DNA of 64,000 nucleotides from Candidatus Parcubacteria bacterium (GCA_039795775.1 JBDKLC010000005.1:185624-249623), one strand, 5' to 3'; counted from the first letter of the stretch, positions 6,569 through 20,922 are shown. Numbers and translations are program-made. The notes: generated from the letters alone by a model not told the origin.

Positions 6569-8080
6569 ATGAAATTTATCGACAACTTTTTGAACTCAGT
6601 CACTATGTACAATCTGGTACTCAAGTGCCTTTGGGTGATTGCGGGTGTAGCTATTGTATTAGGTGCGTTTGGTGTTATTCCATATAGTCCATTATCTCTT
6701 ATCGGTTCATTCCTTACGCTTGCAGTTGTGAGTTGGGCTGTGAATGGACTTTTTGCACATATTTTTAAAGTACCTGCAAACGTTGAATCATATTCGATCA
6801 CAAGTCTCATTTTGTTCTTCATCATGCCGCCAGCAACATCTATCGCTGGGTACGGTGTGCTCGCTCTTACGGCTGCAATTGCAATGGCATCAAAATATCT
6901 GCTTGTTGTGCATCATACACATATTGCTAATCCTGCAGCGTTTGGTGCATTTGTAGTTGGTCTTATAGGATTTGGTGACTCGTGGTGGGTGGGCAACTAC
7001 ATGTCTCTCTATCCATTTCTCATTGTGGCAGGTGCTCTTATCGTAAAAAAGATTCGTCGATGGCCGCTCTTTATCGGGTATGCTCTTGCTGCACTTGTCG
7101 GTTCGTCTATAGTCGCTCTACTCAATGACTTGAGTGTTCCAAGTGTTGCTCTAGGTGTTCTCACCAACGGTGCACTTATATTCTTGGGAACAGTGATGCT
7201 TACAGAGCCGCTGACAATGCCTTCGACTCGAAAGATGCAAATCATCTATGGAGTGATCGTAGGATTCCTTGCTACATTCACCGCGGGCGCCTTCTATGTT
7301 TCTCTCGAGCTTGCTCTTATTATTGGAAACGTATTTGCGTTTGTCGTGAGTCCAAAGTTTCGACTCAAACTGACACTTGTTGCAAAGCGTGCCTTATCAC
7401 CTGATATTCATGAGTTTGAATTTTCTTCAACTGAAAAAATACAGTTTGACCCAGGGCAGTATCTTGAATGGACATTAGCGCATCAGGGTCCAGACTCTCG
7501 AGGAAATAGACGATATTTTACGGTAGCGTCATCTCCGACTGAACAAACAATAAAGCTTGGTATTCGACTTGCTCCAGAAAAGGGAAGTTCATTCAAAAAC
7601 GCTCTTGTTGGTCTTGAAGTAGGACATGCTATTTTTGCAGGACAAATTGCTGGTGATTTCGTGTTGCCAAAAGATACATCAAAGAAAATAGTATTTGTAG
7701 CTGGTGGAATTGGTGTGACTCCATTTAGAAGTATGGCGAAATATCTTATCGACTCAGGTGAAAAACGAGATGTAACTCTTTTTTATGCAGCAATGACTCC
7801 TCAGAGTTTTGTATATTCAGATGTGTTTGCTGAAGCTGCTCAAAAGTTTGGTATGAAAACAGTCAATGTACTTTCTGGTGCAAAAGAAATTCCGCAAGGA
7901 TGGAATGGGGAAGCCGGTTTCCTTACTGCTGACATGATTAAAAAATATATTCTAGAATATACTGATCATTTGTTCTATCTCTCTGGTCCAAATGGTATGG
8001 TAATGGCGTACAAAGACATGCTCAAGAAGGCTGGAGTTATTGAAACAAATATTCATACAGACTATTTCCCAGGGTTCTAG
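6569..8080 (+). CDS. Membrane oxidoreductase. An N-terminal polytopic domain resembling the RnfD/NqrB (NQR2_RnfD_RnfE) family is fused to a C-terminal FNR-like FAD/NAD(P)-binding domain.
   Basis: The protein is 503 aa. The first roughly 270 aa are multi-TM and contain MLTEPLTMPSTRK, which resembles the D/E-P-x-T-x-P motif seen in RnfD/NqrB proteins. The C-terminal half carries RRYFTVASSP (the RxYS FAD motif), GGIGVTPF (the NAD(P) motif) and YLSGPNGMV. Confidence 0.7.
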   Translation: MKFIDNFLNSVTMYNLVLKCLWVIAGVAIVLGAFGVIPYSPLSLIGSFLTLAVVSWAVNGLFAHIFKVPANVESYSITSLILFFIMPPATSIAGYGVLALTAAIAMASKYLLVVHHTHIANPAAFGAFVVGLIGFGDSWWVGNYMSLYPFLIVAGALIVKKIRRWPLFIGYALAALVGSSIVALLNDLSVPSVALGVLTNGALIFLGTVMLTEPLTMPSTRKMQIIYGVIVGFLATFTAGAFYVSLELALIIGNVFAFVVSPKFRLKLTLVAKRALSPDIHEFEFSSTEKIQFDPGQYLEWTLAHQGPDSRGNRRYFTVASSPTEQTIKLGIRLAPEKGSSFKNALVGLEVGHAIFAGQIAGDFVLPKDTSKKIVFVAGGIGVTPFRSMAKYLIDSGEKRDVTLFYAAMTPQSFVYSDVFAEAAQKFGMKTVNVLSGAKEIPQGWNGEAGFLTADMIKKYILEYTDHLFYLSGPNGMVMAYKDMLKKAGVIETNIHTDYFPGF

Positions 8081-8090
8081 ATAAAAGAAA

Positions 8091-8150
8091 ACCGCCAATT
8101 CATACAGGTTGTCAGGCTGCATGAACGGCGGCTTGTTTTCTTCGGAGTCG
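8091..8150. terminator. Imperfect hairpin between convergent genes.
   Basis: ccgccaattcat pairs with atgaacggcgg, followed by cttgttttc. Confidence 0.35.
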
Positions 8151-8176
8151 GAGGACGAGTCCTCTTGTGCTGTGGT

Positions 8177-8839
8177 TTAGGTGACCTCTCCATCGAGCGG
8201 TTGCACGTTGGGGACGAGCGGACCTCGTGGCTGTGGAAACGCCCTGTTTGCACGGGTGCGCAAGGTGCCGAGCACCCAATCAGCAAATGGCAGGACAACG
8301 TTGAAGTTGTTGTCAGACATATACCGATGATGGAGTAAGTGATGACCGTTGAGCTTTTTGAAAATCCAGCCCACCAGTTTGAACTTAAACAGACGGCGTG
8401 GTCGCGGCAGGTGCATGCACCAGTGAAGGTATTCATACGTTGCATAGTATGCTGCAAGCACTGAGGCCAAGGTGATCATAGGCCACCACACACCCATCCA
8501 GATGCCCAAAGGCAAGAGTGGAAGAGATGCGATGACGATGAGCACGGGTCCATTCCACGGTGCCATTGGAATTGTTTTGGCATCTACGGGTCTTTGCAGC
8601 TCGTAGGTTTTGTCGGATCTAAATGTTCTGTGATGCACACGGGCGTGCGCGTCATAGGCATAGTTGAATCCAAAAAATGGTTGGTGCATGACGTAGCGGT
8701 GCAGAAACCACTCGAAGAACGATGTGTAGAGCACACATCCGATGAGAGTTAATGTGAAGATCATATGAAATGAGCGTTGGTTGTTTGTCAGAATCAGTGA
8801 AGTGCTGTTTTGGACGGTAGATTGCAGAATGACGCACAC
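8177..8839 (-). CDS. Fatty acid hydroxylase / sterol desaturase superfamily membrane protein. The exact start is uncertain.
   Basis: Three histidine boxes are present: HRYVMH, HARVHH and HHLLHH. The protein has several TM segments. The gene is GC-rich relative to the genome. Confidence 0.65.
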   Translation of the reverse strand: MCVILQSTVQNSTSLILTNNQRSFHMIFTLTLIGCVLYTSFFEWFLHRYVMHQPFFGFNYAYDAHARVHHRTFRSDKTYELQRPVDAKTIPMAPWNGPVLIVIASLPLLPLGIWMGVWWPMITLASVLAAYYATYEYLHWCMHLPRPRRLFKFKLVGWIFKKLNGHHLLHHRYMSDNNFNVVLPFADWVLGTLRTRANRAFPQPRGPLVPNVQPLDGEVT

Positions 8840-8914
8840 GCGTATTCAGGTCCGTTCGTAGTATACACGAAATTGTGCGTTATGATTATTTAAAAGTTAT
8901 TGAAAAAGTAGGTA

Positions 8915-8962
8915 ACAGAAAACCCACCATATCGCAGATGGGCATCTGTGATACGGTGGGTG
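8915..8962 (-). terminator. Hairpin terminator downstream of the 9060-9524 gene.
   Basis: An 18 bp stem with two mismatches pairs cccaccatatcgcagatg with catctgtgatacggtggg. The minus strand is T-rich after the stem. Confidence 0.45.
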
Positions 8963-9059
8963 ATTACATCATCCCACGTAGCGGCTCCTTCCGGTGTAAT
9001 AACCATTAGGGCCGACTTCATACTGGTATTTTCCGATACGTTGCCAGATCATAGTGTTG

Positions 9060-9524
9060 TTAAGCGTTGGCTTTCTCAGCGTTGTGTTGCGTGACATCTT
9101 GTCCACGCCAGAATGTCCAGGAAGCGGAGCATCCGAGGTGCGACACTTTGAGGCCGACGATTCCGAGGAACGTCGTGGAGATCATCCAGAGATTTCCTTC
9201 TTGGTGAGTCAGGACGATGCTGTTGTAGAGCACCACTTCTTCATTGAGGAAGTCGCCTTGAGTGTGGAAGAACCAAGAGCCGAAGCTCGAGTGTTGAAAC
9301 CACATCATGATCATGGGAAACATGATGATGAAGCAGGCGATCATGGTTGCTAGTGAGATTGCCCACAGCAAGGGCCAATACCAGGCGCCTTCCGTTTTTC
9401 GGATGGAGCGCAGGGCGTTGGCAACATGGGTGCTGATATTTTGGAACGCGATTATGAGGCTAAACGGTAGGACCCACAGCGAAGTGAGACCGAGGAGTAG
9501 TGCGGTGATGATGACGAGGTGCAT
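9060..9524 (-). CDS. Hypothetical polytopic membrane protein.
   Basis: The 154 aa protein has 4-5 predicted TM helices and no recognisable motif. It is GC-rich like the neighbouring hydroxylase gene. Confidence 0.5.
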   Translation of the reverse strand: MHLVIITALLLGLTSLWVLPFSLIIAFQNISTHVANALRSIRKTEGAWYWPLLWAISLATMIACFIIMFPMIMMWFQHSSFGSWFFHTQGDFLNEEVVLYNSIVLTHQEGNLWMISTTFLGIVGLKVSHLGCSASWTFWRGQDVTQHNAEKANA

Positions 9525-9552
9525 ATTATGTGATATTCAGGTTGTGTTGAGT

Positions 9553-9598
9553 TTAAAACTGCTTGTAAGACACAATGTCTTACGTCTTAGAAGCAGTT
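9553..9598. repeat. Nested inverted repeat (compound hairpin) in the intergenic region.
   Basis: aaaactgctt pairs with aagcagtttt as an outer 10 bp stem. gtaagaca pairs with tgtcttac as an inner 8 bp stem. Confidence 0.5.
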
Positions 9599-9698
9599 TT
9601 AGAATGTCACATCTGCGTATATAATAGCATACTTTATTATAAAAGTCAAGCATAACTATGGCTCAACAAAGGGATAAAGCGCGTTTTCTATGAATAAA

Positions 9699-10589
9699 TT
9701 ACTCCGTAAAAAATCCTCCTGGAAATGCTATAGAGTGGGTGAGTGAACCGTCCGCATGGAGAATAGCGTAGTCAAAATGAAATTCTTTTTGAAGCTTTTC
9801 AGGAGACACGAAAAAGAGCGCTGTAGTTAGGGCATCAGCAAGAAGAGTTGTTTCTGCAACTACCCACAAGGCAGTTATATGTCGTGGCGACTCAACAGAA
9901 TGTGCATCAATAACGTGATGAAATTTATTCCATGTTCGTCTATTGCCGGCGGATCCACAAATACTTTTGTTTACAATCGTTGCTACCCCAATTGCCTTTG
10001 ACGTATCACGTGGATCTTCAAGTCCTATCTGCTGAGGTATCTTGTCCTTACTTGTATGTAAAATATCACCGCCTGCATTGATAGTGTATTCTTCGATTCC
10101 TGAGTCTGTCATAAGCTGACCGACAATATCTATAATGTGTCCCTTACCCAAAGCGCCGAAGTCGAGAGACACGGGCTCTTTAATGATGAGTTTTGGATGT
10201 GGTCCGTCATTATGATATTCCATAACATCTTTCCACTTTTTTGCAGGGAGAATTTTTTCTTTTGGAGTGAGTGAATACTGCGCATCATATCCTGCATCTA
10301 CAAGTACTTGGCCAATGAGGGGTGTCATTTTGCCATGTGTAATGCTGTACAACTTTTCGTAGAGTGAAAGCATAGGTCCTGCATCTGTTGGAAGGTTGTA
10401 GGTGCCAGCAGTTTTTCTGATTTGTGCAATGAGTGAACCGTCTCGAAATCGTGAGTATGTTTCTTCAAAGTGTTCGATGCGAGCTTTTACCACATTAGCA
10501 ATAGAATCAGACGCGATAACGTCTGATTCTATAAAATCAATCTTCCATTCAGTACCAATTGCACGAAATGCAAATTGGAAGTGAGTCAT
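9699..10589 (-). CDS. apbE: FAD:protein FMN transferase (ApbE family).
   Basis: The 296 aa protein contains GALGKGHIID, INAGGDIL and GSAGNRR in an ApbE-like core. No N-terminal signal peptide is evident. Its start overlaps the stop of the upstream FMN-binding gene in a TAATG arrangement. Confidence 0.8.
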   Translation of the reverse strand: MTHFQFAFRAIGTEWKIDFIESDVIASDSIANVVKARIEHFEETYSRFRDGSLIAQIRKTAGTYNLPTDAGPMLSLYEKLYSITHGKMTPLIGQVLVDAGYDAQYSLTPKEKILPAKKWKDVMEYHNDGPHPKLIIKEPVSLDFGALGKGHIIDIVGQLMTDSGIEEYTINAGGDILHTSKDKIPQQIGLEDPRDTSKAIGVATIVNKSICGSAGNRRTWNKFHHVIDAHSVESPRHITALWVVAETTLLADALTTALFFVSPEKLQKEFHFDYAILHADGSLTHSIAFPGGFFTE

Positions 10590-11101
10590 TAGCTTCGAGC
10601 TTTAACTTTGATCTGCTCTACAGCATTGTTGAAACCAATTGGTGTGAGAGATGCGCCTGATACGTTGCCAAGTTTGAGACTTGCGATACTTTTGCCAACT
10701 ACTTGTGCTTTGAATCCAGAAATGAATTTAGCCTGAAGATCTTTAGAAATTGGGTTGATAGCTTTTGCTGTAACTGTAGCGTCTGTTACTACATCGCCTT
10801 TGAGCACGAGACTTACATCAATACTTTCAGCGCCAGCTGGTGACTTGTATGAGCCAGAAGCTGTGTATGTGCCATCTTTGTATGATTGAGTACTTTTTGG
10901 CTTGTCAGCTGGTGTTGTTGTAGGAGCCGATGTTCTAGAAGAAGTAGTTGTTGAAGATGTTGTTGCAGTTGCACCAGCTGAAGTAGTGTTATCAATTATA
11001 GGAGTAGGTGTTGTTGTAGACTGAGGTCGTGTTGAATACATACCTGCAATAATAAGTGCTGCTACCACGATGATTCCGATATATGTTTTCTTTGAATTCA
11101 T
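10589..11101 (-). CDS. Membrane-anchored FMN-binding domain protein, a candidate flavinylation substrate.
   Basis: An N-terminal TM anchor is followed by a Thr/Ser/Pro-rich linker and an FMN_bind-like domain. That domain begins DGTYTAS and ends GNVSGASLTPIGFNNAVEQIK. The second segment carries the SGAT-type flavinylation motif with Ser in place of the terminal Thr (SGAS). Confidence 0.7.
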   Translation of the reverse strand: MNSKKTYIGIIVVAALIIAGMYSTRPQSTTTPTPIIDNTTSAGATATTSSTTTSSRTSAPTTTPADKPKSTQSYKDGTYTASGSYKSPAGAESIDVSLVLKGDVVTDATVTAKAINPISKDLQAKFISGFKAQVVGKSIASLKLGNVSGASLTPIGFNNAVEQIKVKARS

Positions 11102-11166
11102 TGTTTCTAAATGTCTAAATTAACTAAATTTGTTGTGTTGATTATACCGAATAGCCCAGATTTTGG

Positions 11167-11823
11167 CTAATCAGGCATTTTTTCTCCTTCATCTCGCCAC
11201 TCGATTATCTTGCCGGACTTACGTTCCATGCGGTCAGCCCTTCGGAGGTGGCGTTTGTTTTTTGATGGGAGGTAAGGGAAGTGAGGAGACTTGTCGACTA
11301 CGGCTGCGAGATCAAAGAGCTCTTCTTCTGTTGTGAGCCACTCTGTACCAAATCGTTTGAGGTTGATGGGACGTGAATAGCTTTGGAGGACTTTGTCGCC
11401 TGTCGTATTCACAAAATATTCATGAAAATATGACATGGCAAGTTCTCTCACTGTGCGATATACAGGATCACGAAATCGTACGGTCGTATGATTTGTTTTT
11501 GAAATTGCTCCCCAGAATCCGTTTATTTTGTACAACGCAACGCAGTGATCATCATCGTAGGGATACGCTTTCATATTCATAATAAGTGGTTCATGCCCGT
11601 GGAGCCACAGTGTAGCTGCCGCAAAAAGTGCTGCTTCCATACAGTGCGCCTTTTTGTGACGGAGTACACGACGCGGAGACATGTTTGTCTCGCCATCATA
11701 TTCAAAATTGATAGAAAGCGTATCAAGAAAATCTTGTATTTGTATTGGCGTAGAAAGCGACTGCAATTTTTTCAGTTCTGATGCATTGAATATTTCTTTG
11801 GCGATTTTTTGAAACGATGACAT
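11167..11823 (-). CDS. Hypothetical protein with a papain/transglutaminase-like Cys-His signature.
   Basis: The 218 aa protein contains KAHCMEAALFAAATLWLHGH. The family assignment is tentative. Confidence 0.5.
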   Translation of the reverse strand: MSSFQKIAKEIFNASELKKLQSLSTPIQIQDFLDTLSINFEYDGETNMSPRRVLRHKKAHCMEAALFAAATLWLHGHEPLIMNMKAYPYDDDHCVALYKINGFWGAISKTNHTTVRFRDPVYRTVRELAMSYFHEYFVNTTGDKVLQSYSRPINLKRFGTEWLTTEEELFDLAAVVDKSPHFPYLPSKNKRHLRRADRMERKSGKIIEWRDEGEKMPD

Positions 11824-13126: not shown

Positions 13127-13552
13127 CTAACTTTTCATTGGTTCTACCTGGAAGTTGAGCATCCACTCTACACCGTACTTGTCAGTCACTACACCGAAGA
13201 TAGCACCCCAGAATGTTGGTTCTGGTGCCATGAAAACGTTGCCGCCTTCTGAAAGCTTTGCAAAAATGTCTCGAAGCTGCTGTTCACTTTCTAAGTTGAG
13301 TGACATACCTACGTTGTCTCCGATAGTTGCTTTGTCTTGCATCATGTCCATTCCTACGAAAGTGATTGGGCCTGCTGTAAGAATAGAATGCATAATGTTG
13401 TTCTGCTTTTCTTCTGGCATATCTTTTGCCATTGGAGAATCTTTCACAAGCATAGTTTCGAGCGTGCCTCCAAATACTGATGTATAAAAATTCATACCTT
13501 CTGTACCTTTGTTATCGTTGAAACGAATGAACGGTGTAAGTGTTGTTGTCAT
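13127..13552 (-). CDS. VOC-family (glyoxalase/PhnB-like) protein.
   Basis: The likely start is MTTTLTPFIRFNDNKGTEGMNFYTSVFGG, which is a PhnB/3-demethylubiquinone methyltransferase-like N-terminus. It is a paralog of the 14228-14656 gene. Confidence 0.65.
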   Translation of the reverse strand: MTTTLTPFIRFNDNKGTEGMNFYTSVFGGTLETMLVKDSPMAKDMPEEKQNNIMHSILTAGPITFVGMDMMQDKATIGDNVGMSLNLESEQQLRDIFAKLSEGGNVFMAPEPTFWGAIFGVVTDKYGVEWMLNFQVEPMKS

Positions 13553-13639
13553 GGTATGCATTCTAATACAAAAGTTGTAAAAACGAAAAACCACCACCCA
13601 CATTCATGGATGGCGGCATCGTGAATGGGGAAGTGGCTG

Positions 13640-14227: not shown

Positions 14228-14656
14228 TTATACAACCGGTACAAATTCAATAAGCCATTCAATACCGTACTTATCTCGTAGCATGCCAGCATAACTACCC
14301 CAAGGACTATCACCCATAGGACCTTCTACTTCGGCGCCATCTGAAAGACCATTAAAAATAGCATCTGCTTTTTCCTTAGTGTCTGCATTGATCACAATTT
14401 TACTTCTGTTTTCTTTTTCGTTTACGGTACCCATAAATGAAGGGATATCATTTCCCATGAGTACACTATTTGGACCGATAGGAAGGCTTATGAGCATGAG
14501 CTTGTTTGCTTCTGCCTCCGGAATCTGAACCTCTGCACTGGCAATGTCTTTGAACCGAACCGTTTTTGTAAATTCACCGCCGAATATTGATTTATAAAAA
14601 GTAAACGCTTCTTCGGCATTACCGTTAAAGTTGATCCAAGGGTTGATAGTTGTCAT
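14228..14656 (-). CDS. VOC-family (PhnB-like) protein.
   Basis: MTTINPWINFNGNAEEAFTFYKSIFGGEF is a typical PhnB-like N-terminus. The gene is 142 aa. Confidence 0.7.
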   Translation of the reverse strand: MTTINPWINFNGNAEEAFTFYKSIFGGEFTKTVRFKDIASAEVQIPEAEANKLMLISLPIGPNSVLMGNDIPSFMGTVNEKENRSKIVINADTKEKADAIFNGLSDGAEVEGPMGDSPWGSYAGMLRDKYGIEWLIEFVPVV

Positions 14657-15587: not shown

Positions 15588-16064
15588 TTAATTGAGAATC
15601 CAGATTGAATAGTTGAGATAAGAAGCAAAACTTACCCAGAGAATGTAGGGGAGGAGAAGCCACATTGCTGGTTTCGAAATTTTGTAAAAAAGTGTCATGG
15701 TCCAAACTATTGCGAGCCACATTGCCACGATATTTACCAAAGCCCACCCTGGGCTCTGTAGTCCAAAGAATACAATTGACCAGGCTGCATTGAGTACGAG
15801 TTGTAGACTAAATATGCTTATTGCTTTTCGTACATCGTATCGGTCAAAGCCTTTTTTCCAAACAAGAAAGAGAGCAATACCCATGAGAGCATAGAGTGTT
15901 GTCCACACAGGTCCAAAGACCCAACTTGGAGGGTTGAGAGTTGGTTTAGTAAGTGTGGCGTACCAAGTTGGAATTGCTGATATCGAAAATACTGAACCAA
16001 TAAGACCAGCAAGTTCACAAATAATAATTGCACCAACTAGTTTGAGAATGGAATGTGATTTCAT
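15588..16064 (-). CDS. tspO: TspO/MBR family tryptophan-rich sensory protein.
   Basis: WYATLTKPTLNPPSWVFGPVWTTLYALMGIA is the classic TspO signature. The protein is 158 aa with 5 TM helices. Confidence 0.85.
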   Translation of the reverse strand: MKSHSILKLVGAIIICELAGLIGSVFSISAIPTWYATLTKPTLNPPSWVFGPVWTTLYALMGIALFLVWKKGFDRYDVRKAISIFSLQLVLNAAWSIVFFGLQSPGWALVNIVAMWLAIVWTMTLFYKISKPAMWLLLPYILWVSFASYLNYSIWILN

Positions 16065-19144: not shown

Positions 19145-19960
19145 ATGCAAAAATCACACAGTAGTCTCTCAGTAGTTGGTGTCGCTCTAGTTATGGTGGC
19201 ACTTCTTGCCGGATCAGCATATGTATTTGGAAAAGCAGGAACATCAGATGATCTTGTGGCCCAAGTAAATAAGGCCGTTTCCGGACCTACTATTCCAGGC
19301 AGTGCTACAAAACCTCCTTCAACAGCCTCTACAACACCGCCGACAGCCTCTACAACTCCACTAAAGCTGCCAACATGTATGTTCAAACCTGTTGACTGCG
19401 CTAAGTACGAAAAAGCTGTAATTGATGCACAAGAAGTACTCGATAGTGACTTATTGAAGCTAAGAGATCTGTATAAGGATCAAGCTAAGTACGAAAGACA
19501 ATTGACTGAAAATAGAAAACAACAAAAAGAGATTATTGATGAACTAGTGTATCAGTACTCACTGATTGAGGGAGAGCAACGAGATATTGCAAATATACAA
19601 GAGGAGATTACAAGTGTTCAGCGACGCTTAACTGATCCAGGAATAACACCTCAAAAGAAAGCGCAATTGCAGCAGCAACTAAAGAAGCTTCAAGAGCAAT
19701 TATTCGAATCTCAGGAAGTGGTTAAAGTTGCGCGGGCAACCGTGGAATATCTAGACGGCGAACTACAGTCACTCGAAGAAGCTGAACGTAGAATTAATGC
19801 AGCTCTTGCTGGAGTGAACGAGAGCATCACAAGAATGAATGCCAAAATTAGAACAGATGAAAGTGAATTGGCTAAAGCAAAGAGAAATCTGGAAACATGT
19901 AGAAAGCTTCAGCAGCAGGCGATCGATCTATATCTAAGTTGTGTGTCTAGTTTCTACTAA
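19145..19960 (+). CDS. Membrane-anchored coiled-coil protein with a TP-rich linker.
   Basis: A signal anchor is followed by a PSTASTTPPTASTTP linker and a long heptad-rich region. Confidence 0.55.
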   Translation: MQKSHSSLSVVGVALVMVALLAGSAYVFGKAGTSDDLVAQVNKAVSGPTIPGSATKPPSTASTTPPTASTTPLKLPTCMFKPVDCAKYEKAVIDAQEVLDSDLLKLRDLYKDQAKYERQLTENRKQQKEIIDELVYQYSLIEGEQRDIANIQEEITSVQRRLTDPGITPQKKAQLQQQLKKLQEQLFESQEVVKVARATVEYLDGELQSLEEAERRINAALAGVNESITRMNAKIRTDESELAKAKRNLETCRKLQQQAIDLYLSCVSSFY

Positions 19961-20070: not shown

Positions 20071-20922
20071 TTAGAAAAGAAGTAACAACAATAGTATGGC
20101 TAAGGTAAAGGCCATTCCGCCGTAGTATTTAGTTTTCATTACTTTTTTGTATTCTGATCTATCTCCTGTGATTGTTTTGACAACTTGCCATATTGATATG
20201 TACGCGACTACTCCAATGATGAAAAGTGAAAGCGCAACTGGATTGTTTGAATGAAATGAAGAGGAGAGTAACAAAAAACCAATGATAAAAAGATAGAGAT
20301 AGTTTTTTTGTATTGCTTGTATACCGTATGCGGCTGCAAATGTACGGTCACCTCTCTTTGTATCTTCTTTAATTTGATATGCCTGAGAAAATGGATACAT
20401 ACTGAGAATGATGATGGTTATACCTAGTGCTCCGAGTATGAGTTCACTAGATACAGTAGTTCCGCCACTGGCGAGGTATCCCATAATTGTTGTGTTGAAG
20501 GCCGTGCCGATACCAACCACAAAAAAACTGAGTAGTGGTTTTGCTTTGAGTCGTACTGTCGTACCGCTGTACATCCACGATAGCAGTATTGAAACCAAAT
20601 ACAGCACACCAAATATAAAGTTTATAGAGATAGATACTATGAATCCAAGTATCTGAATGAGCCAGGCACCATAGTACATCCATCTCGCCATCTTCGGTGG
20701 ATGTTCAAGTCCACCAATTGGTCCTTCATCTTTATCAATATATGAGTTGTACGCATTCGCTCCACCAAAGAGCAAAATGTAAACGAGGAAAAATAAAAAA
20801 GCAAAATGTGTATAGTCTGAAATTGTAGGGAGGTACAGCGCTCCAAGAAAGAAGGGAGCTGAAAGAATAAAAAGGTTGTAGTTCAACCGTAGGTGCAACA
20901 CAAAGTCTTTTATGTGAGACAT
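20071..20922 (-). CDS. UbiA-family prenyltransferase.
   Basis: A polytopic membrane protein containing NAYNSYIDKDEG, an Asp-rich motif of the UbiA type. Confidence 0.7.
   Translation of the reverse strand: MSHIKDFVLHLRLNYNLFILSAPFFLGALYLPTISDYTHFAFLFFLVYILLFGGANAYNSYIDKDEGPIGGLEHPPKMARWMYYGAWLIQILGFIVSISINFIFGVLYLVSILLSWMYSGTTVRLKAKPLLSFFVVGIGTAFNTTIMGYLASGGTTVSSELILGALGITIIILSMYPFSQAYQIKEDTKRGDRTFAAAYGIQAIQKNYLYLFIIGFLLLSSSFHSNNPVALSLFIIGVVAYISIWQVVKTITGDRSEYKKVMKTKYYGGMAFTLAILLLLLLF

Follow-up and report, generated by a model that had tools for sequence, protein, structure and literature searches.

How might a bacterium of the candidate phyla radiation (CPR, Patescibacteria) dispose of its reducing equivalents? 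These organisms have tiny genomes and are not known to possess a respiratory chain or quinones. The question is raised here by a locus at positions 6,569–11,101 of a 64,000-nucleotide stretch (hereafter the window) of a Candidatus Parcubacteria metagenome-assembled genome (GCA_039795775.1, JBDKLC010000005.1:185624-249623). The locus encodes a protein in which an RnfD/NqrB-like membrane domain is fused to an FNR-like reductase domain, a protein of the FMN_bind type and a flavin transferase, ApbE. The first-pass annotation, made from the sequence alone, had suggested that these three proteins form a stripped-down NQR or RNF, leading electrons from NAD(P)H to an extracytoplasmic flavin mononucleotide (FMN). 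Our analysis supports that suggestion and equates it with a published class, the NQR/RNF-like systems (Méheust, 2021, PMC8238504; Huang, 2024, PMC10979944), to which the locus belongs. We consider it likely that the locus is a complete system of this class, comprising a two-subunit, all-flavin transmembrane electron-transfer complex and a dedicated flavin transferase, and that it probably passes electrons from NAD(P)H in the cytoplasm to a flavin protein on the exterior. A device of two subunits that lets electrons leave NAD(P)H for the outside without quinones would be among the few membrane redox systems of CPR bacteria.

The three open reading frames (ORFs) lie where the first-pass annotation had placed them (Table 1), and domain searches bear out both halves of the 503-residue fusion. 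NQR2_RnfD_RnfE is matched at residues 149–259 with 28.1 bits (gathering cut-off 27.7), FAD_binding_6 at residues 268–355 and NAD_binding_1 at residues 376–482 (E 1e-15), whilst NCBIfam returned weak matches to RnfD, RsxD and NqrB together with numerous reductases of the FNR type, NqrF among them. A profile built from the membrane domain also matches RnfD (8ahx_D, E 1.3e-6), and the assignment of the N-terminal domain to the RnfD/NqrB type stands. The RxYS, GGxGxxP and SGP motifs attributed to the reductase half are all present and are invariant in 20 homologues. In an AlphaFold2 (AF2) model built with these homologues (mean per-residue confidence, pLDDT, 86), ten membrane helices are followed by a two-lobed FNR domain; Foldseek with the whole chain matched the FNR half only. 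The source genome annotates the fusion as a 491-residue protein starting at Met13, which is 12 residues too short: the stretch before it (6569–6604), which opens the conserved start MKxIDxFLNSITMY, holds four positions, D5, L8, N9 and T12, that are invariant in the 20 homologues, and this places the true start at 6569.

When the helix boundaries of the model were laid on the alignment, the predicted cytoplasmic loops were found to carry 11.4 lysine and arginine residues per sequence, against 0.75 in the outer loops. This distribution points to a membrane domain with both termini inside, an FNR domain in the cytoplasm and a loop between transmembrane helices 5 and 6 (TM5–TM6) that faces outwards. 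This loop, whose equivalent carries the flavinylated threonine in RnfD and NqrB, is short (12 residues, 133–144). There is no [ST]G[AS][ST] motif in residues 1–265 of the window protein and no [ST]GA[ST] in the membrane domain of any of 80 homologues; judged by its sequence, this domain lacks the threonine to which FMN is covalently attached in RnfD and NqrB.

The 170-residue protein, in turn, resembles NqrC and RnfG. A profile of its subfamily matches the solved FMN-binding domain 8p2a (E 0.0022), with VSGsSLT lying over VSGATYT and the flavinylation motif in register, and a comparison of the window subfamily with the canonical subfamily by hhalign (probability 97.8%, E 9e-13) again brings the motifs into register. 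Homology to flavinylated FMN_bind domains was thus found, with the modified residue aligned. The SGAS motif reported in the first-pass annotation is present, about 20 residues before the C-terminus. Homologues share YKDGTY...VSG[S/A]S-LTPxGFN, and Ser151, Leu152 and Thr153 are invariant in 26 of them. The AF2 model reaches a pLDDT of at least 95 over residues 71–170, and Foldseek matches to it include 8p2a (TM-score normalised to the target 0.70), 8p2b, RnfG and NqrC. The N-terminal hydrophobic anchor (residues 8–24, Kyte-Doolittle hydropathy 2.26 over 17 residues) has a K/R-rich N-flank, indicating an N-in/C-out subunit, and several homologues from Actinobacteria, including Rathayibacter, and from some CPR bacteria carry lipoprotein lipoboxes instead of a signal anchor. 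Both features argue that the FMN_bind domain is extracytoplasmic.

The third protein appears equipped to modify the second. In all 67 ApbE homologues that adjoin fusion genes, the catalytic-type histidine (His225 of the window protein, in HHVID at 9906–9920), K149–G150, G174–D175 and an aromatic residue at position 48 are kept, and the AD-x-x-x-T pair is nearly as constant (D252 in 66 of the 67, T256 in 65). Since catalytic and Mg2+/FAD-binding residues are conserved, the ApbE homologues beside the fusions look like active transferases.

A scan of species-representative genomes found relatives of the fusion in more than 580 species-level genomes. The best 80 loci (L001–L080), which range over many CPR lineages and Chloroflexi, were analysed with iterated hidden Markov models (HMMs), by which ApbE was found in 71 and the FMN_bind protein in 72. 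Upstream DNA of 1.7 kb or more was available for 72 loci, which we call informative; the complete trio is found in 65 of them, and in 58 it forms an operon, FMN_bind > ApbE > fusion, contiguous on one strand and usually overlapping or nearly abutting. The co-occurrence of the trio across related genomes, which the first-pass annotation had left to be checked, is therefore a widespread feature of the family.

Membership of the published class follows from the same features. The term "NQR/RNF-like systems" was applied to flavinylation clusters that encode a PF03116–PF00175 fusion (Méheust, 2021, PMC8238504), with an ApbE or FMN_bind gene no more than five genes away; in the window, two genes lie between the fusion and apbE. 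The pair from Ktedonobacter racemifer was later modelled by AlphaFold-multimer, which placed the NqrC-like flavin beside the NqrB-like flavin pocket; the flavinylated threonine is lost in the class, and the covalent flavin of the NqrC-like subunit was suggested to sample the NqrB-like pocket (Huang, 2024, PMC10979944). The window locus has the same PF03116 and PF00175 fusion, a partner homologous to NqrC/RnfG with a predicted flavinylation site, an association with apbE and no conserved NqrB/RnfD threonine, and CPR, Actinobacteria and Chloroflexi are common to both sets of taxa. It differs in its rearranged gene order and in belonging to a divergent subfamily, with an ApbE of about 290 residues and FMN_bind proteins mostly missed by the Pfam FMN_bind model.

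The electron path that these parts suggest would begin with the reduction, by NAD(P)H, of flavin adenine dinucleotide (FAD) in the cytoplasmic FNR-like domain of the 503-residue protein. The membrane would then be crossed by way of one or more flavins in the RnfD/NqrB-fold domain, itself without the covalent-FMN threonine, and electrons would reach an FMN phosphoester-linked to Ser151 of the anchored FMN_bind subunit at the outer face. This FMN, installed from FAD by ApbE, would pass them to an extracellular acceptor. In function, such a complex would match the half of RNF that lies on the NADH side, running from RnfC through RnfD to RnfG, except that a fused NqrF-like reductase takes the place of RnfC. 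What the analysis itself establishes is the identity of the domains, their folds, the topology signal, the conserved catalytic and attachment residues and the joint occurrence of the genes as an operon; the cofactors of the membrane domain, nucleotide preference, direction of electron flow, covalent FMN on Ser151, association of the two subunits and the acceptor are inferred.

Several points weigh against this view of the locus. As a single sequence, the 170-residue protein falls below the Pfam FMN_bind (PF04205) cut-off, with 12.1 bits against 22 (E 0.32), so that the FMN_bind call of the first-pass annotation holds at the level of profiles and fails at that of the individual protein. The Foldseek support is weak, with no match at E<1e-3 and IscU/SufU-like folds interleaved among those named above. 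The window motif, G-N-V-S-G-A-S, is without the conserved Asp of D-x-x-[ST]-G-A-[ST]. Most members of the window subfamily read S-G-S-S with an invariant final serine, and an Asp-to-Ala change in the flavinylation motif has minor effects only (review, PMC12052999). The three genes do not form one operon in this genome, and no acceptor gene is evident among the window genes scanned (about 2.2–23.2 kb). A full-text literature search beyond the two studies cited returned no other paper and no experiment on any member, the published evidence for the class being bioinformatics and AlphaFold models (PMC8238504; PMC10979944), so that the whole mechanism is one that we infer. Lastly, ApbE is without an export signal throughout the family though its presumed substrate domain lies outside the membrane, and this mismatch leaves the maturation step unexplained.

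The missing signal peptide had been noted in the first-pass annotation, which put it down either to a mis-called start or to a cytoplasmic target. The first explanation is refuted. An in-frame stop lies four codons 5′ of the window apbE ATG, making the ORF maximal, and when the protein is aligned to E. coli ApbE as crystallised (PDB 4xgw), its residue 9 already falls on residue 21 of that chain. A hydrophobic N-terminal segment is found in none of the 73 maximal ORFs of neighbouring apbE genes; a median of 9 residues precedes the invariant glycine of the first conserved ApbE strand, and the few longer extensions are hydrophilic. Likewise, the 120 nearest ApbE homologues in the database are 277–316 residues long, with no added domain, and none has room for a signal peptide. 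Of the second explanation one part survives: export of the FMN_bind partners, some of which have lipoboxes, tells against a cytoplasmic target protein, whilst a cytoplasmic site of action is conceivable. "ApbE" ORFs of 444 and 432 residues in L021 and L048, both from GC-rich Chloroflexi, are probably artefacts of taking the maximal ORF. A programmed frameshift or a read-through that would fuse FMN_bind to ApbE was rejected, as the junctions between the two genes vary from overlaps to gaps of 2–80 nt and the 120 homologues, as just noted, consist of the ApbE domain without additions. Text searches of PMC8238504 and PMC10979944 found the leaderless ApbE unmentioned, and the 2021 survey had admitted only clusters in which at least one product bears a signal peptide or lipidation site (PMC8238504). 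The combination of a family-wide leaderless ApbE with exported substrates is a testable puzzle on where protein flavinylation occurs, and three resolutions come into consideration: flavin attached in the cytoplasm ahead of export, an ApbE that itself crosses the membrane by an unconventional route, and some other cytoplasmic target.

The first of these would touch maturation only and leave the electron path unchanged. The leaderless ApbE would flavinylate SG[A/S]S before or during export, and the flavinylated chain would cross the translocon. The upstream stop in the window, the absence of hydrophobic N-termini, the compact homologues and the exported, in part lipoboxed, FMN_bind partners all speak for such a route, as does a motif so close to the C-terminus: according to a review (PMC12052999), ApbE can modify a tag of seven residues and is most effective at the ends of proteins, and some ApbEs are cytoplasmic. 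The ApbE of Klebsiella pneumoniae, which acts in the maturation of fumarate reductase, is likewise cytoplasmic and without a signal peptide (PMC12052999), but its substrate is soluble and cytoplasmic, whereas the only candidate here is exported and membrane-anchored or lipidated. Moreover, export of a flavinylated chain is without precedent, a signal-anchored protein of 170 residues is normally inserted co-translationally, with little time for modification, and the protein has no Tat (twin-arginine) motif for folded export. We hold cytoplasmic maturation at this locus to be possible but doubtful, and advance with the same reserve the general proposal that across CPR, Chloroflexi and Actinobacteria a dedicated ApbE flavinylates an exported FMN_bind protein in the cytoplasm prior to translocation. 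If true, it would constitute a new maturation route, in which a covalent flavin is attached inside and then carried across the membrane, and FAD export would be unnecessary in these flavin-scavenging, single-membrane cells.

Alternatively, ApbE might act on another cytoplasmic site, for example a residue of the fusion, with the FMN_bind protein binding flavin non-covalently or not at all. A leaderless enzyme would fit, and T12, T212 and T216 are invariant on the cytoplasmic face of the fusion. T212 and T216, however, belong to TEPxTxP, which is common to canonical RnfD and at which RnfD is not known to be modified; the membrane domains of the 80 fusions are without an ApbE-type motif, as described above, and the sole such motif of the operon, with its invariant serine, is on the FMN_bind protein. 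The pairing of enzyme and motif subtypes points the same way. The 80 related loci hold two operon subfamilies. In A, ApbE has about 248 residues ('MGMP...FSTYK') and the FMN_bind motif is D-x-x-S-G-A-[TS] (for example L016:2650-5336); in B, to which the window belongs, ApbE has about 290 residues ('FEAIGTxW...YSRFR') and the motif is VSG[S/A]S-LTP (for example L004:8634-11521). ApbE of subtype A occurs with GA[TS] in 42 of 42 cases and subtype B with G[SA]S or SSS in 23 of 24. Such covariation fits an enzyme–substrate pair, although co-inheritance of whole operons of shared ancestry could equally explain it. Taken together, these observations make a different cytoplasmic target improbable, and flavinylation of the FMN_bind protein at Ser151 is the reading that we retain.

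The serine that precedes the final serine in subfamily B departs from the published consensus alanine, and at E<0.01 the Pfam FMN_bind model matches 18 of 18 members of subfamily A against 7 of 26 of subfamily B. In a separate look-up, an operon of subfamily B was found in a cultured actinobacterium, Rathayibacter agropyri (JABRPL010000001.1, L081:6001-8832), with a lipoprotein FMN_bind (lipobox LAAC), a leaderless ApbE of 294 residues and a fusion of 500 residues; this organism is a potential model for experiments on the class.

How does the system retained here compare with the complexes after which the class is named? Set against RNF (RnfABCDGE), and specifically its RnfC–RnfD–RnfG branch, it is without RnfA, RnfE, RnfB and RnfC; NAD(P)H is served by a domain of the FNR type, fused in cis, its RnfD-like domain is without a covalent FMN site, and its path is presumably one-way and free of ferredoxin. 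Na+-NQR (NqrA–F) has six subunits where the window system has two, which have no NqrD/E iron centre, NqrA or evident quinone, and electrons would pass through the NqrB-like domain in the reverse direction. No six-subunit RNF or Na+-NQR operon was found: neither the recurrent neighbours in the 80 loci nor the scanned window genes, whose other domains are unrelated or none, include an Rnf or Nqr subunit.

The membrane domain might still translocate Na+ or H+ as electrons pass, which would make the system a minimal NQR and a redox-driven ion pump. In Na+-NQR a route for Na+ through NqrB has been proposed, the acidic residues E73 and E213 in or at the membrane domain of the fusion are invariant, and members of the family abound in CPR bacteria, which are not known to have respiratory chains. 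Yet the pumping machinery of NQR and RNF includes conformational coupling and the NqrD/E or RnfA/E pair, and that pair is absent among the conserved neighbours in the 80 loci; the driving force, moreover, would depend on an acceptor for which no gene is evident in the scanned part of the window. Nothing that was tested supports ion pumping, and we think it unlikely.

Simple electron transfer to the outside, as proposed here, has counterparts elsewhere. In the flavin-based extracellular electron transfer of Listeria (Ndh2, EetA/B, PplA, FmnB), electrons from NADH are also delivered to an ApbE-flavinylated, membrane-tethered FMN_bind protein at the surface of a single-membrane cell, but by way of the quinone pool and unrelated membrane proteins, and with an exported lipoprotein ApbE (FmnB); the window system would be quinone-independent, and its ApbE is leaderless. 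FNR fusions of the NOX/ferric-reductase, MsrQ-like and PepSY-like kinds follow the same logic, with a membrane redox domain joined to a cytoplasmic FAD/NAD(P)H domain and electrons moving outwards, and SpNOX is among the fold matches of the fusion through its dehydrogenase domain. In those proteins the membrane carriers are haems, whereas here they would presumably be flavins within an RnfD/NqrB fold.

In the window itself the standard operon is not intact. The fusion gene is convergent to the FMN_bind–apbE pair, whose TAATG overlap was verified by direct reading, and about 1.6 kb separates the end of the fusion (8080) from that of apbE (9699), as first annotated. Two genes occupy this interval (8177–8839 and 9060–9524), and homologues of neither the 220-residue nor the 154-residue product occur in any of the 80 related loci, which rules them out as parts of the system. 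The segment that holds both (8001–10000) has a GC content of 0.469, against about 0.42 in the flanks; since the genes are absent from related loci, the intervening stretch is probably an insertion that split the operon. The window locus is thus a rearranged, interrupted copy of the standard operon in which all three genes are intact.

The same features could be taken to mean that the system is decoupled or decaying in this genome, the fusion and the FMN_bind–ApbE pair no longer cooperating: the convergent order is atypical, the two genes between are unrelated, the GC content differs, and only 7 of the 65 complete informative loci depart from the canonical order. But all three ORFs are full length, the invariant residues inspected are kept (those of the fusion in the 20-sequence alignment, S151, and H225, D252 and T256 of ApbE), and apbE is separated or the pair inverted in other genomes too (L006, L030, L031, L055, L073). 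We regard decay as very improbable.

Table 1. Features of the locus (nucleotide positions in the window; aa, amino acids).
Feature	Position	Strand	Basis
RnfD/NqrB-like–FNR fusion, 503 aa	6569-8080	+	ORF and Pfam
Fusion membrane domain, aa 1-265, 10 TM helices, predicted N-in/C-in	6569-7363	+	AF2 model, K+R distribution, RnfD profile match
Fusion cytoplasmic FNR-like domain, aa 266-503	7364-8080	+	Pfam, motifs
RRYFTVASS	7508-7534	+	Fusion FNR domain
GGIGVTP	7703-7723	+	Fusion FNR domain
SGP	7982-7990	+	Fusion FNR domain
FA_hydroxylase-superfamily membrane protein, 220 aa	8177-8839	-	Pfam, E 4e-10
Membrane ORF, 154 aa	9060-9524	-	No significant Pfam family
ApbE, 296 aa, leaderless	9699-10589	-	Pfam ApbE, E 2e-37
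TAATG stop/start overlap, FMN_bind gene to apbE	10587-10591	-	Read from sequence
FMN_bind protein, 170 aa	10589-11101	-	Profile-level homology; Pfam below cut-off
NqrC/RnfG-like subunit: anchor aa 8-24, Ser/Thr/Pro-rich linker, divergent FMN_bind domain aa ~72-170	10589-11101	-	Profiles, AF2
S148-G149-A150-S151, predicted ApbE flavinylation motif; Ser151 the predicted FMN site	10649-10660	-	Translation, conservation, alignment
Promoter-like TAGCCA-17-TATAAT 5′ of FMN_bind gene	11141-11169	-	Consensus match only

The family to which the fusion belongs is large. A search with the fusion gave at least 6579 clusters (90% identity) at E<=1e-5 among 8000 scored candidates, and one with the membrane domain alone gave 695 clusters (50% identity) at E<=1e-10, nearly all of them proteins of about 500 residues. 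Because the RnfD-like domain sits on the Pfam gathering threshold, about 40% of the close homologues listed carry PF00175 only in precomputed Pfam annotation. The 2021 survey counted 127 NQR/RNF-like clusters and described flavinylation as "strikingly underrepresented" in CPR (PMC8238504). That count looks like a large underestimate, with a family far larger in CPR, and both it and the apparent rarity of flavinylation in CPR are probably in part artefacts of detection, given an RnfD-like domain on the threshold, FMN_bind proteins of subfamily B below it and an ApbE without a leader. A CPR family far larger than the 127 clusters, a divergent subfamily with the motif VSG[S/A]S-LTP and an ApbE start that is not mis-called are what the present analysis adds to the published class.

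Beyond the trio, gene families recur in 18 of the 80 loci at most. An ECF sigma factor is found near the operon in 18, often then with a multi-pass, anti-sigma-like membrane protein (9 loci), histidine kinase/response regulator pairs in 14, a CopA-like P-type ATPase in 9 and cytoplasmic MsrA/MsrB in 6–7, mostly of subfamily B; MacB-like ABC genes also recur, within the overall range of 6–18 loci (examples of such neighbours are L004:6995-8294, L005:11551-12567, L006:4485-5490 and L045:4174-6468). As clues to the acceptor, none of these recurrent genes accompanies the operon everywhere, and this window has none of them; they hint at an envelope, metal or oxidative-stress context. Some loci have two tandem FMN_bind genes 5′ of apbE (L078:1053-2090, L021:7948-9256), and in L021 the second copy appears to be split over two reading frames.

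Some smaller observations concern the window itself. Scans of the region for promoters and terminators gave site counts no higher than in shuffles or by chance. A candidate second FMN_bind copy at 19145–19960 (HMM E 0.004) was rejected as a match in composition only, the protein consisting of an anchor, a Ser/Thr/Pro linker and a coiled coil. The FA_hydroxylase-superfamily protein between the fusion and apbE carries the His boxes HRYVMH, HARVHH, HWCMH and HHLLHH. A TspO/MBR protein is encoded nearby (15588–16064, minus strand; Pfam E 4e-52), as is a UbiA-family prenyltransferase (20071–20922, minus strand; E 8e-17), which may be of interest because the synthesis of respiratory quinones is not generally expected in CPR genomes. 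A pair of paralogues of the PhnB/VOC type, with the glyoxalase fold, is encoded at 13127–13603 and 14228–14656, both on the minus strand and about 600 bp apart.

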